This document shows, one piece after another, positions 11,511-14,959 of a DNA stretch of 64,000 bases. How positions within the stretch are numbered: position 1 is the first letter of the stretch; the number at the start of each line of letters is the position of its first letter. The stretch spans positions 34,357 to 98,356 of the forward strand of contig DFOT01000012.1 in NCBI GenBank assembly GCA_002376875.1. Reading direction: 5' to 3'. The notes beneath the pieces are model-generated. The model saw nothing but the letters and a program-made list of their open reading frames with translations, ran no database searches and had not been told where the DNA came from. Both the position numbers and the translations under genes were made by a program. Origin of the DNA: Opitutia bacterium UBA3534. Lineage in GTDB: Bacteria; Verrucomicrobiota; Verrucomicrobiia; Opitutales; UBA3534.

Positions 11511-13481
11511 ATGCGATTTAAGCTAAAGGCCGATTTCACTCCGCGTGGCGATCAGCCTGAGGCCATTGAGGCCCTGACGAATTCTATACAAGCAGGGAAT
11601 CGCTACCAGACGCTCTTGGGTGTTACGGGTTCTGGGAAGACTTTTACGATGGCTAATGTAATCGAGCGTTTACAACGGCCTACATTGATTATCTCCCACA
11701 ATAAAACTTTAGCAGCCCAGCTCTATTCAGAATTTAAGGCCTTTTTCCCTGAGAACGCGGTCGAGTATTTTGTAAGCTATTACGACTATTATCAGCCTGA
11801 GGCTTATGTCCCTCAAACAGATACTTACATCGAAAAAGATGCCTCTATTAATGATGAGATTGAGCGCTTACGCATTGCCGCGACAAGTAGCTTAATTAGC
11901 CGTAAGGATGTTATAGTTGTTGCAAGTGTGTCCTGTATTTATGGTTTAGGCTCCCCGGAGGATTTTAAGGCCATGATGATTGCGCTGAAGGTCGGAGAGT
12001 CGCTCAACCGCGATGGATTACTAGAGCGCTTGGTTGGGAATTTATACGAGCGTAACGATATTGAGTTTAAGTGTGGAGTATTTCGTGTGCGTGGAGATAC
12101 CGTGGATGTGTTCCCTGCGTATATGGAAACGGCTATTCGTGTTGTTTTTTTTGGAGACGAGATTGAATCTATTCATGAGCTAGATCCGCTTACAGGAGAA
12201 ACTGGTAAGCATTTTGAGCAATTTAATTTATATCCAGCTAATCAATATGTCACACAGCCTGAAAAGCTTAAGAACGCTCTGATGCCCATTCGTGAAGAAC
12301 TTGAAGAGCGAGTAGGTGTTTTTGAAAAAGAAAATAAGCTTATAGAGGCTCAGCGTATTCGTATGCGTACAGAATATGACCTCGAGCTTTTACAAGAGAT
12401 GGGGTTTTGTCAGGGTATCGAAAATTACTCTAGACACCTTAGTGGGCGTAAGGCAGGAGAGCGGCCTTTATGTTTGATCGATTTCTTTCCTAAGGATTTT
12501 GTTCTATTTATGGATGAAAGCCATGCAACGTTTCCTCAGGTGCGTGGGATGTATAATGGCGACCGAGCACGCAAGCAGCGGTTAATTGATTTTGGATTTC
12601 GCTTGCCTTCCGCCTTAGATAACAGACCTCTTATGGGAGACGAGTTTGAGTCAGTCATTCCTCAAATGCTTTTTGTGTCAGCGACTCCCAATGACTATGA
12701 GCTTGAGAACTCTAGTATTGTTGCTGAGCAGGTTATTCGCCCAACGGGTTTGCTTGATCCGCCAATTACGATACGCCCTATTAAGGGACAGGTAGAGGAC
12801 CTTAAGGGGGAGATTCAGCAAGCAGTAGCATCCGGGGAGCGGACTTTAGTGACGACACTTACCAAGCGTATGTCTGAGGACTTAACCCATTTTCTGCAAG
12901 AAGCTGAAGTGCGTGTGGAGTACTTGCATTCTGATATTGATGCGATTGAGCGTGTTGAGATTTTAAGACGATTGCGCAGTGGAGATTTCGATGTCCTTGT
13001 TGGAGTTAACCTTTTAAGAGAAGGCTTAGACCTTCCGGAAGTTGCTTTGGTTGCTATTCTTGATGCAGATAAGGAAGGCTTCTTGAGAAGTGCAACAAGC
13101 CTTATTCAGACTGCAGGGCGTGCAGCACGCCATGAGGCAGGTCGTGTAATTCTTTATGCTGATACGATTACGCAATCTATCCAAAAAACACTTGATGTGA
13201 CGGCACACCGTCGGGAGAAACAGCTTGCCTATAATGAAAAGCATAATATCACCCCTCAGAGCGTAAAACGAGGTCTTCAAGAAAGCCTGCAGCTTGCTTC
13301 TCCTAAAAAAGCAGACCCTATTAGTCTTAAGGATGCTGGTGGGCGAGAGGCTGTAGCTACTGTGATTGCAGAGCTAGAAAGCGAGATGCTCCAAGCTGCA
13401 GAGGACTTAGCGTTTGAGCGCGCGGCTGTTTTGCGTGACCAAATTAGTTTGCTGAAAAAGCAAGCCAAGAAAAAATCTTAG
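11511..13481 (+). CDS. uvrB: Excinuclease ABC subunit B
   Basis: Walker A GVTGSGKTFTMA, DESH box (MDESHAT), C-terminal UVR domain (FERAAVLRDQI). ATG at 11511. Confidence 0.97.
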   Translation: MRFKLKADFTPRGDQPEAIEALTNSIQAGNRYQTLLGVTGSGKTFTMANVIERLQRPTLIISHNKTLAAQLYSEFKAFFPENAVEYFVSYYDYYQPEAYVPQTDTYIEKDASINDEIERLRIAATSSLISRKDVIVVASVSCIYGLGSPEDFKAMMIALKVGESLNRDGLLERLVGNLYERNDIEFKCGVFRVRGDTVDVFPAYMETAIRVVFFGDEIESIHELDPLTGETGKHFEQFNLYPANQYVTQPEKLKNALMPIREELEERVGVFEKENKLIEAQRIRMRTEYDLELLQEMGFCQGIENYSRHLSGRKAGERPLCLIDFFPKDFVLFMDESHATFPQVRGMYNGDRARKQRLIDFGFRLPSALDNRPLMGDEFESVIPQMLFVSATPNDYELENSSIVAEQVIRPTGLLDPPITIRPIKGQVEDLKGEIQQAVASGERTLVTTLTKRMSEDLTHFLQEAEVRVEYLHSDIDAIERVEILRRLRSGDFDVLVGVNLLREGLDLPEVALVAILDADKEGFLRSATSLIQTAGRAARHEAGRVILYADTITQSIQKTLDVTAHRREKQLAYNEKHNITPQSVKRGLQESLQLASPKKADPISLKDAGGREAVATVIAELESEMLQAAEDLAFERAAVLRDQISLLKKQAKKKS

Positions 13482-14959
13482 CAGTATTCTTTGATCTTAA
13501 TATATCGATTCACTGCTTGAGGACTGATGCCTAAGAATCGTGAGGCTTTGCTTTGATTGCCCGCTGCTCTGGTGAGCGCTTTTTCGATAACGGCCTTGCG
13601 CACTGTGCTTAGATAGTTCTCGAGAGAGAAACCTTCGTCAAAGTCAGGCAGTATTTGATTAAGAGAGTTATTGCCTAATGGAGCTATGTCAAACGCATCA
13701 GGGTCTAGGAGTGGCTCCGGACTTAAGATGGCAGCTCGCTCAATAGTGTTTTGGAGGTCACGTACGTTCCCGGGCCAGTCTTGGGTGGCTAGTAGCTGGA
13801 GGACTGACTTAGAGAACTGACGTGGAGGGTGTAAAGATCGATTGATTGCATTGAGCGTATTGACTGCAATTCCCACAATATCACTGCGTCGCTTCCGTAA
13901 TGGAGGGAGTTGGATCTCTCCGGCACGTAGGCGGTAGTAAAGATCTTCTCTGAAGGTGCCTTGTTGAACGGCTTGAGTAAGATCTTGGTTGGTTGCTGCA
14001 ATGAGGCGTACATCTACAGTGTGGGCCTGGGTACCTCCGAGTGGAGTTACTTGGCCATCTTCAATAACCCTAAGGAGTTTTGCTTGTGTTTTTAAAGAAA
14101 GCTCTGCGAGTTCGTCTAAAAATAGGGTACCTCCATTAGCAATTCTGAAGAATCCTGGTTCATTTTGGGAGGCTCCAGTAAAAGCGCCTTTCTTATGTCC
14201 AAACAGAATACTTTCACTTAGTGCATCGGGTAGGGCTGCGCAGTTAACTACAGTAAGCTTTTCTGCACGCCGAGGACTTAGGTGGTGAATGAGCTTGCTG
14301 AATAAGTCTTTTCCGGTGCCGGTTTCTCCTTGTATAAGGACTGTTGTAGAGTGTTGTGCAAGGATAGCTGCTGTATCGATTGCTTTCCGAAAAGCAGGGT
14401 GTTGCCCATAAATACCTAAAGACTCTAATAGGTCATCCAGGAAGGGGGCAGTTTCTTCAAAGGCCTCTGTTGAATCAGCAGTTTCATCACTTTTAAGCTC
14501 TACTTTATTGAGATAGGTGATGAACGGGGGCCTTGAGGGAAGGGTAGAGGACAGTTTAACTTGAACAAGATTAATGGGGAAGGCTTGAGCAGTTGTGAGG
14601 AAAAGCAGGGCAGAGTCTACAAATGGATTTCCATCTGTAAGGCAGAGGGTTAAGTTCTCCTCTGGGCCTTTGTTGAGCAGTGTAGTGAGGTGCTCACGAA
14701 AGGCGCTGATAACTTGTGGTGTATTCTCATTAGCGAAGTTTAGCGATTGTACTTCTAGGGGGAGGTTTGGGAATTCTTCACGTAGGAAGGTTTCTGTCCT
14801 AGATGCGCAGGAGGCATATAAGACTGTAGTTAGAAGTATAACACGTTCGAATTTTTGCTGACGCAAGAGCGATAGGATAGGGCCTGTGGTTTTGTGGCCT
14901 TCTAGGGCGCTAGGCAAAAATGGGTCGTTATGAGTAGGGAAGGCAATGAGGGTGTTCAT
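13478..14959 (-). CDS. Sigma-54-dependent transcriptional activator with RtcR-like (CARF-type) N-terminal domain
   Basis: AAA+ Walker A GETGTGKDLF, sigma-54 contact loop GAFTGA, and a C-terminal HTH (SKASRFLGISPQAVNRYI). The N-terminal 150 aa has no receiver motifs. From memory it parallels E. coli RtcR (ILLTT..., LTLCLTDGNPFVDSALLFL versus YLIHITTGTHVAQICWFLL). Confidence 0.8.
   Translation of the reverse strand: MNTLIAFPTHNDPFLPSALEGHKTTGPILSLLRQQKFERVILLTTVLYASCASRTETFLREEFPNLPLEVQSLNFANENTPQVISAFREHLTTLLNKGPEENLTLCLTDGNPFVDSALLFLTTAQAFPINLVQVKLSSTLPSRPPFITYLNKVELKSDETADSTEAFEETAPFLDDLLESLGIYGQHPAFRKAIDTAAILAQHSTTVLIQGETGTGKDLFSKLIHHLSPRRAEKLTVVNCAALPDALSESILFGHKKGAFTGASQNEPGFFRIANGGTLFLDELAELSLKTQAKLLRVIEDGQVTPLGGTQAHTVDVRLIAATNQDLTQAVQQGTFREDLYYRLRAGEIQLPPLRKRRSDIVGIAVNTLNAINRSLHPPRQFSKSVLQLLATQDWPGNVRDLQNTIERAAILSPEPLLDPDAFDIAPLGNNSLNQILPDFDEGFSLENYLSTVRKAVIEKALTRAAGNQSKASRFLGISPQAVNRYIKIKEYC

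Follow-up and report, generated by a model that had tools for sequence, protein, structure and literature searches.

RESULTS AND DISCUSSION

A sigma-54 activator gene lies opposite a small receiver-like gene

The 64,000-nucleotide stretch of DNA analyzed here (the window) comprises positions 34,357 to 98,356 of contig DFOT01000012.1 from Opitutia bacterium UBA3534 (assembly GCA_002376875.1). On its minus strand, positions 13478–14959 encode a protein of 493 amino acids, referred to below as the activator, in which a predicted CARF domain (residues ~1–150; 14510–14959) is followed by a sigma-54-interaction AAA+ domain with its lid (residues 183–423; 13691–14413) and a C-terminal Fis-type helix-turn-helix (HTH; 13496–13597). 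The divergent gene on the plus strand (15205–15534) encodes a single-domain pseudo-receiver of 109 amino acids, which is the predicted sole local target of the activator. Two candidate control elements occupy the region between the genes: an inverted repeat that may serve as upstream activating sequence (UAS; 14973–14996), and a sigma-54 promoter of the -24/-12 type that points toward the pseudo-receiver gene (15145–15160, plus strand).

The open reading frame (ORF) of the activator matched the Pfam families Sigma54_activat (PF00158, residues 183–349, E = 2e-64), AAA_lid_14 (PF25601), and HTH_8 (PF02954, residues 455–485, E = 1.3e-7), and also gave NCBIfam and PADLOC matches, which are described below. 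The Walker A motif GETGTGK (residues 211–217; 14309–14329), the GAFTGA loop (residues 258–263; 14171–14188), the Walker B motif LFLDE (residues 279–283; 14111–14125), and the sensor II motif GNVRDL (residues 397–402), all encoded on the minus strand, are intact. The product of 13478–14959 therefore looks like a working sigma-54 enhancer-binding protein. A preliminary description of this locus had called it a true member of that class because of its GAFTGA motif, which agrees with the Pfam match and the full set of AAA+ motifs. It had also reported an N-terminus free of receiver, GAF, and PAS motifs, and Pfam likewise detected none of the three in the first 180 residues. Marine metagenomes, among them those of TARA, contain the identical 493-residue protein on contigs as long as 1.26 Mb. 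The named UvrB matches, with 72–76% identity, come from Opitutales, Puniceicoccaceae, Ruficoccus, and Oceanipulchritudo, which places the source among marine Verrucomicrobiota of the Opitutae type. A near-identical strain variant differs in 3 of the 493 activator residues and in 2 of the 109 pseudo-receiver residues, changes that are too few for a test of selection.

The 109-residue protein matched receiver domains of known structure (PDB 3c3m, E = 1.8e-5, and also AdeR, KdpE, and PhoP). Among the NCBIfam models, it matched PhoB with an E-value of 2.6e-4 and several response-regulator models with E-values of 1e-3 to 1e-4, and its match to the Pfam receiver family was below threshold (E = 0.087). 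The receiver alignments show that the protein retains the acidic pair (Asp11/Asp12). The phospho-acceptor Asp, the conserved Thr/Ser, and the conserved Lys are replaced by Glu54, Arg80, and Gly101, respectively, the last of which is adjacent to Lys102. Because of these three replacements, the protein is regarded as a pseudo-receiver. The preliminary description had arrived at the same assignment, with a length of 110 residues instead of the 109 counted from the ATG at 15205. A single-sequence AlphaFold2 (AF2) prediction was weak, with a predicted local distance difference test (pLDDT) score of 61, and the secondary structure consisted of beta-alpha repeats through beta4. Among 5.8 billion proteins, the search returned no homologue but the protein itself, and the loci fetched for comparison held no specific relative of it either.

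The stop codon of the pseudo-receiver gene (15534) is two bases away from that of a convergent gene for a 606-residue protein (15536), with no terminator detected. Because the two stop codons adjoin, a sigma-54-dependent transcript of the pseudo-receiver gene would be monocistronic. It could run antisense into the 606-residue gene. A scan for terminators and sigma-70 promoters around the locus gave nothing above chance.

The N-terminal domain and its ligand pocket

Taken alone, the N-terminus of the activator matched the Csm6 CARF model of Pfam only weakly (E = 1e-4) and the Pfam family RtcR (PF06956) not at all. A phmmer search with this domain against 1.84 billion representatives identified 59 proteins, many of them activators of ~500 residues, and the best match other than the protein itself had 32% identity. 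The ~500-residue relatives align with the activator from end to end at 40–46% identity. Among 26 aligned N-terminal domains, 20 matched PF06956 and 18 matched Csm6_CARF. Compared with the PDB, the profile of this alignment retrieved the CARF domains of Enterococcus italicus Csm6 and Streptococcus thermophilus Csm6' (E = 1e-6). The AF2 model of residues 1–182 (pLDDT 82; predicted template modeling score, pTM, 0.74) consists of strands alternating with helices. All 50 PDB matches listed by Foldseek for this model are CARF proteins, with Csm6 at the top (6tug, E = 1e-7, TM-score 0.62), followed by Sso2081, Cam1, Cad1, Can2, Card1, and Csa3.

Judged by the structural model and the profile comparisons, the N-terminal ~150 residues are a CARF fold. 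The preliminary description had named a comparison with structures and CARF models as the check on this domain; the profile search and the matches listed by Foldseek point to a CARF fold. It had also drawn a segment-by-segment parallel to the CARF domain of Escherichia coli RtcR. In sequence, this likeness is weak: the two N-termini share only 16% identity, and the BLAST alignment with RtcR begins only at residue 100.

CARF motif I of the activator reads THNDPF (residues 9–14), and Asp12 and Pro13, together with Gly26, are invariant in the CARF domain alignment. Motif II, TDGNPFV (residues 108–114; 14618–14638), is degenerate. It keeps only the Gly and the Pro, and thus reads DGNPFV where the relatives linked to restriction-modification (R-M) genes have SGTPQM, a sequence that the latter share with E. 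italicus Csm6. In that protein, replacement of Asn10, Thr114, or Gln116 by Ala reduces or abolishes the response to cyclic hexaadenylate (cA6; PMC7101355). Asn111 and Phe113 of the activator align with Thr114 and Gln116. Motif II is degenerate in the nearest relatives of the activator as well (AGSPLT, TADSTW, NDEPIW, and GVSLPM). Because the two motif II positions that correspond to cA6-sensing residues, and that are conserved in the rest of the family, are replaced, the signal of the activator is probably not the nucleotide-type ligand that is usual for its family. The cA6-binding CARF domains of E. italicus Csm6 (6TUG) and S. thermophilus Csm6' (8PE3) are the best structural and profile matches of the N-terminus. 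Unlike Csm6, however, the activator has no HEPN nuclease, its output is transcription, and Asn111 and Phe113 stand where Csm6 carries the cA6-sensing Thr114 and Gln116 (PMC7101355).

Two further groups of proteins were observed in the searches with this domain. Three of them (P0248, P0250, and P0273) share the CARF-like N-terminus and have lost the Walker A lysine (e.g., GEPGTQK) and the GAFTGA motif; they look like inactive pseudo-activators. In the giant repeat proteins P0245 (5477 residues), P0278, and P0279, 4 to 13 stretches each match residues 76–143 of the activator. This is probably a chance likeness of the segment LTLCLTDGN to leucine-rich repeats and not homology.

The activator belongs with RtcR_PspF2 and not with RtcR

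The NCBIfam equivalog model of RtcR (NF038308) has a cut-off of 650 bits. The activator scored 304.2 bits, with the model aligned to residues 28 to 482. PADLOC provides three models of CARF-AAA-HTH proteins, namely RtcR, RtcR_PspF1, and RtcR_PspF2 (PDLC01995). Although RtcR_PspF2 is a catalogued family, no experimental study of it is known to us. The activator reached 406.5 bits with RtcR_PspF2, a model without curated cut-off, compared to 205.6 bits with RtcR and 179 bits with RtcR_PspF1. The RtcR_PspF2 match (E = 4.9e-122) extends from residue 2 to 488 and covers positions 2–476 of the 481 in the model. For calibration, E. coli RtcR yielded 882 bits on the RtcR model and 283 bits on RtcR_PspF2. 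On the latter model, relatives from Pseudomonas, Geobacter, and Spirochaeta scored 525–745 bits, the R-M-linked proteins P0097 and P0054 448–454 bits, and the nearest relatives of the activator 411–424 bits. The activator itself has the lowest score of the calibrated set (406 versus 411–745 bits).

A neighbor-joining tree of the AAA+-HTH region, which carries no support values and is indicative only, grouped the activator with 11 relatives (P0002, P0003, P0005, P0006, P0011, P0015, P0055, P0060, P0062, P0244, and P0254) and with the protein of an Opitutales metagenome-assembled genome (locus L080). This branch is sister to the R-M-linked group and apart from E. coli RtcR. We conclude that the activator very probably belongs to the CARF-type sigma-54 activators of RtcR_PspF2 and is not RtcR. 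It appears to be a divergent member, whose branch occurs in Opitutae-type Verrucomicrobiota and related metagenome bacteria.

RtcR-like CARF-AAA-HTH proteins that are unlinked to Rtc, and linked instead to operons for R-M and CoCoNuT defence, have been described previously (Makarova 2014, PMC4012209; Bell 2024, PMC11090510). In the latter study, RtcR homologues stood at the head of superoperons that combine CoCoNuT with type I R-M genes (Bell 2024, PMC11090510). Both the RtcR_PspF2 family and its link to R-M and CoCoNuT are hence already known (PMC4012209, PMC11090510). The preliminary description had correctly stated that the window lacks RtcB and RtcA, for which tblastn with the E. coli proteins gave a best E-value of 2.9. 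Its reading of the locus as an RtcR circuit rewired from rtcBA is not supported, however, in view of the score of 304 bits against the cut-off of 650, the 406 bits for RtcR_PspF2 against 206 for RtcR, and relatives that lack rtcBA in the DNA fetched around them. We found neither rtcB nor rtcA near any of the 15 full-length relatives in named genomes, nor at any of the fetched metagenome loci (fetched DNA, up to 10 kb on each side). The sole RtcB match among 89 loci adjoins an unrelated activator without CARF domain. Rewiring, if any, would have been away from the defence (R-M) operons that the RtcR_PspF2 family usually heads.

The activator nevertheless resembles RtcR of E. coli and Salmonella, the activator of rtcBA, in its CARF-AAA+-HTH order. 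As in the E. coli rtcR-rtcBA region, the repeat adjoins the activator gene, and a divergent -24/-12 promoter is located about 135–190 bp upstream of the activator start codon. By analogy, negative control by the N-terminal domain is the likely logic here too (PMC7790460). The differences from RtcR are the N-terminal identity of 16% (32% in the rest of the protein), the missed NF038308 cut-off, and the absence of rtcBA from the window. The CARF domain of RtcR binds tRNA 5' halves with a 2',3'-cyclic phosphate end (PMC7790460), a ligand that is not to be assumed for the activator. In the E. coli intergenic region (L007, 5117–5200), the rtcB strand carries TGGCACGACGGTTGCA; the region also has an AT-rich inverted repeat, AAATTAA-N9-TTAATTT, with GCAG at its center. 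Its loose likeness to AAGTTTAAAGCAGGGTTTAAACTT of the window may be coincidence.

An inverted repeat and predicted divergent -24/-12 promoters in the branch

The inverted repeat AAGTTTAAA-N6-TTTAAACTT (14973–14996) is perfect over 9 bp and lies 14–37 bp upstream of the activator start codon. It occurs as a single copy; no second one was found in the 64-kb window. Its conserved form across the relatives is GTT(T/G)AA-N5-8-TTAAAC. We counted a relaxed pattern, GTTTAA-N4-8-TTAAAC with at most one mismatch, which had a background frequency of 0.0245 per kb over 1.55 Mb of fetched DNA. It was present within 80 bp of the activator start codon in five of the nine branch loci (binomial P about 5e-12). 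In the R-M-linked loci, five out of seven had it within 100 bp after the activator stop codon, ~100 bp upstream of the sigma-54 promoter (P about 5e-12). Locus L094 carries the close variant GTTGAA-N5-TTCAAT. Because the pattern was derived from the window itself, the window locus is not independent evidence, but the other loci are. The repeat at 14973–14996 is likely the binding site of the activator, as its conserved position suggests.

The strict consensus TGGCAC-N5-TTGCW with one mismatch matched the window only at chance level and not at all in the intergenic region. Therefore, a weighted promoter scan was needed. It identified the candidate TGGAAT-N5-CTGCA (TGGAATAGAACCTGCA; 15145–15160, plus strand) at a distance of ~160 bp from the inverted repeat; the ATG at 15205 follows 45 bp downstream. 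When the intergenic region was shuffled, about 1% of the resulting sequences contained a directional match of this quality (P about 0.01).

Nine loci of the branch, including the window, were readable. All nine are surrounded by housekeeping genes and lack HsdR, HsdM, and HsdS. The other eight, without exception, possess a divergent -24/-12-like element 135–237 bp upstream of the activator start codon that points away from the activator gene. The elements with the lowest shuffle P-values were TGGCACGGCAATTGCA in L005 (P = 0.0005) and TGGCATGATGAATGCT in L003 (P = 0.001). L092, L080, L091, and L094 carry TGGCACTGAACATGCA, TGGCACAAATAATGCG, TGGCATCAGGTGTGCT, and TGGCATGAGGAATGCC, respectively. 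The element of L002, TGGAGCACGGTTGGCA, is weak (P = 0.14), and in L095 (TGGCAC-N5-CTGTT) the -12 element is degenerate.

The divergent genes encode PAS and/or kinase-type signaling modules in most branch loci. L094 has a PAS-HisKA-HATPase kinase of 391 residues, and the PAS-only proteins of L002 and L095 are homologous to the PAS domain of this kinase (E about 1e-15). HATPase-only proteins are encoded in L003 and L091, and a membrane protein with a weak PAS match in L005. The divergent gene of L092 is a 91-residue ORF. In L080, a hydrophobic ORF of 69 residues comes first, and the region is split by transposase-like ORFs. The window has the 109-residue receiver-like protein instead, and no orthologue of the PAS-kinase of its relatives was found in it. 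In L092 (1670–4325) and L094 (3231–6746; both minus strand), genes for a SET-domain protein, an endonuclease/exonuclease/phosphatase-family protein, and a PIG-L protein follow the sigma-54-driven gene on the same strand and may be co-transcribed with it.

Most relatives outside the branch precede type I R-M genes

Full-length relatives in named genomes outside the branch present a different arrangement. In 12 of 14 cases, type I R-M genes are located behind a sigma-54 promoter. The order is the activator gene, a strong -24/-12 promoter (e.g., TGGCATGGGCTTTGCT or TGGCACGCCCTTTGCT), and the type I R-M genes. Two groups can be distinguished. In the first, a conserved 94-residue ORF without Pfam match precedes HsdR, HsdM, and HsdS, and the proteins are 63–76% identical across loci that carry the labels of very different taxa. 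This layout was observed in L010 (8498–14178), L011–L014, and L016, labeled Thiohalobacter, Syntrophobacteraceae, Anaerohalosphaeraceae, Bacteriovoracaceae, and others. The mobile module of the L010 type is composed of the CARF activator, the repeat GTTTAA-N5-TT(A/C)AAC, the promoter TGGCAT-N5-TTGCT, the 94-residue ORF, HsdR, HsdM, and HsdS, in this order. Its Thiohalobacter copy adjoins conjugative-transfer and integrase genes. Such a layout implies that type I R-M expression would be sigma-54-dependent and signal-induced.

In the second group, the promoter is positioned 23–74 bp after the activator stop codon and reads straight into an unusually long HsdR of 1130–1170 residues, which is followed by HsdM. 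Its members are L035, L037, L044, L048, L050, and L068 (Polaromonas, Geobacter, Halioglobus, Pseudomonas and Metapseudomonas, and Viridibacterium). The HsdR of Geobacter L037 carries an N-terminal DUF4145 domain.

The activator of the window matches RtcR_PspF2 (PDLC01995) over its full length at 406 bits and has the three domains of that family. Its gene also resembles those of the family in the sigma-54 promoter next to it and in the type of inverted repeat. The combination of such a promoter with a preceding GTT(T/G)AA-N-TTAAAC repeat is a feature derived in this analysis and not a published one, and the window locus fits it. Unlike the usual member of the family, however, the activator is not part of a defence island, and its target is divergent rather than downstream and consists of a single pseudo-receiver gene. 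It also differs from the R-M-linked relatives in motif II, with DGNPFV in place of SGTPQM.

A model for the circuit and its alternatives

From the comparative geometry of these loci, we propose a wiring in which the repeat at 14973–14996 acts on the promoter at 15145–15160, and the promoter on the pseudo-receiver gene. We assign a probability of roughly 0.6 to this model. The C-terminal HTH of the activator would bind the inverted repeat, and the CARF domain would keep the AAA+ ring from working in the absence of a signal. The latter step is modeled on RtcR, which is constitutively active without its CARF domain; RtcA and RtcB bind to that domain (PMC7790460, PMC9650030). Once active, the activator would remodel sigma-54 RNA polymerase at the -24/-12 promoter, and the divergent, monocistronic gene for the 109-residue pseudo-receiver would be switched on. 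The pseudo-receiver, in turn, would act by protein–protein contact on some two-component-type pathway.

Several observations weigh against this model. No other promoter of the set is as weak as that of the window (TGGAAT/CTGCA), whose score is equalled or exceeded at 48 sites of the window. The spacing between the half-sites is 8 in the window and in L080, but 5 in most other loci. Conservation of the 109-residue target is not demonstrable because the protein has no homologues. Annotation of parts of the window revealed no rpoN gene. Finally, the AF2 model of the CARF domain was built on an alignment of family members.

In the likeliest alternative, the CARF domain would have ceased to sense small molecules, and the activator would be controlled by a protein partner, in the simplest case the product of its own target, which would close a feedback loop like that of PspF-PspA, HrpS-HrpV, or RtcR-RtcAB. 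We consider this somewhat unlikely as it stands; it would refine the proposed wiring rather than exclude it. The ligand-contact residues of motif II are lost in the activator and its nearest relatives, and the targets in the branch (PAS-kinase, PAS alone, HATPase alone, and pseudo-receiver) are protein–protein signaling modules. Binding of RtcA and RtcB to the CARF domain of RtcR (PMC9650030) offers an analogy, according to which a protein, perhaps the target product, could provide the signal of the activator. On the other hand, Asp12, Pro13, and Gly26 are invariant, and a ligand pocket may therefore persist. Control of a sigma-54 activator by the product of its own target is known from PspF-PspA and from HrpR/S-HrpV. 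The window locus resembles these systems in that the activator gene adjoins a small target gene, which may encode a feedback regulator, but PspF and HrpR/S have no CARF domain.

Several of these elements can be combined. A branch of the RtcR_PspF2 family, which is linked to defence, may have become a fixed signaling circuit in the chromosomes of Opitutae-type bacteria. In this circuit, the CARF domain would have lost its nucleotide pocket, and control of the activator would have passed to the product of its own sigma-54 target, a PAS-kinase in relatives and the Glu-substituted pseudo-receiver here; the circuit may feed type III secretion or effector control in a host-associated marine verrucomicrobium. 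We regard this full scenario as unlikely.

The proposal that the circuit serves host interaction or the control of type III secretion is decidedly unlikely. Precedents are the sigma-54 activators HrpR/HrpS of Pseudomonas syringae and CtcC of Chlamydia, which control type III secretion or host interaction. An injectisome cluster is present at about 47.5–59 kb of the window, which also contains two Sel1-repeat genes, and the 606-residue protein encoded next to the pseudo-receiver is repetitive, charged, and Pfam-less, with a double hydrophobic stretch. The SET-domain and endonuclease/phosphatase-family genes after the sigma-54-driven gene in L092 and L094 fit the same idea. However, the secretion cluster is 33 kb away, and the repeat is unique in the window, with no copy near the secretion genes. 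The 606-residue gene lies on the opposite strand in convergent orientation, and effector roles are guessed. No cis-element was found that ties the activator to the secretion, Sel1, or putative effector genes.

There is also a slim chance that the activator is a regulator of antiviral defence (R-M, CoCoNuT, or other) that responds to a sign of infection, for example RNA with cyclic phosphate ends. Type I R-M genes behind a sigma-54 promoter in 12 of the 14 relatives outside the branch, and the published link (PMC4012209, PMC11090510), would favor such a role. Within the branch, however, none of the nine loci has HsdR, HsdM, or HsdS, and motif II is degenerate. PADLOC detected no defence system in the eight proteins flanking the activator and found for a nearby 1017-residue helicase only generic UvrD-helicase similarity to GajB. 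HsdR, HsdM, and HsdS were not found near the activator, whose neighborhood is of the housekeeping type (UvrB, FabV, GpsA, and tRNA synthetases).

It is highly improbable that the activator is a true RtcR orthologue controlling a distant rtcBA operon, with the neighboring pseudo-receiver irrelevant: although the domain order is that of RtcR and the NCBIfam RtcR model aligns with residues 28 to 482, the score is far below the cut-off (304 versus 650 bits) and half of that for RtcR_PspF2, the tree separates the activator from E. coli RtcR, the CARF-bearing relatives have no rtcB or rtcA in the fetched DNA, and a local pair of promoter and candidate binding site is present. The explanations that invoke a distant rtcBA, defence, or secretion are all weaker than the proposed wiring; among them, secretion is of the greatest interest.

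In CRISPR immunity, CARF domains sense cyclic oligoadenylates (cOA), which is the role they are best known for; the example of RtcR added sigma-54 transcription to what they can control. The present analysis provides the RtcR_PspF2 family with a testable pair of cis-elements, the conserved inverted repeat and the -24/-12 promoter, and identifies a branch outside defence islands with a degenerate ligand motif and two-component-type signaling targets. If the proposed wiring is true, one activator, one site, and one small target would make a simple system for studying what CARF domains sense besides cOA, and the locus would exemplify the reuse of a defence-type regulator for ordinary signaling.

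Other features of the window

A complete-looking cluster for a non-flagellar type III secretion system (injectisome) occupies positions 47488–58950 on the minus strand. Its genes encode a YscD-like FHA protein, needle and needle-chaperone proteins, YscJ, YscK, YscL, the ATPase YscN (52553–53881), YscO, a SepQ/YscQ-like protein, and YscR, S, T, and U. Two adjacent Sel1-repeat proteins and a protein with a GPP34/GOLPH3-type domain, the latter beside the secretion cluster, are encoded on the plus strand at 36942–38854 and 60670–61317. Sel1-repeat and GPP34/GOLPH3-type domains are frequent in host-associated bacteria.

The convergent gene at 15536–17356 (minus strand) encodes the 606-residue protein, which has no significant Pfam match. 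Repetitive and charged in sequence, it has a long double hydrophobic stretch close to its C-terminus, and a weak PADLOC match to 'LeoBC' (E = 1.5e-5) covers the hydrophobic part. These features are reminiscent of type III translocators or of Inc-like membrane effectors. The Inc-like character raised the question of a chlamydial origin of the DNA, which the UvrB matches to Opitutales and related taxa argue against. A single tRNA gene (61358–61430, minus strand) is the only Rfam match at the gathering threshold in the window.

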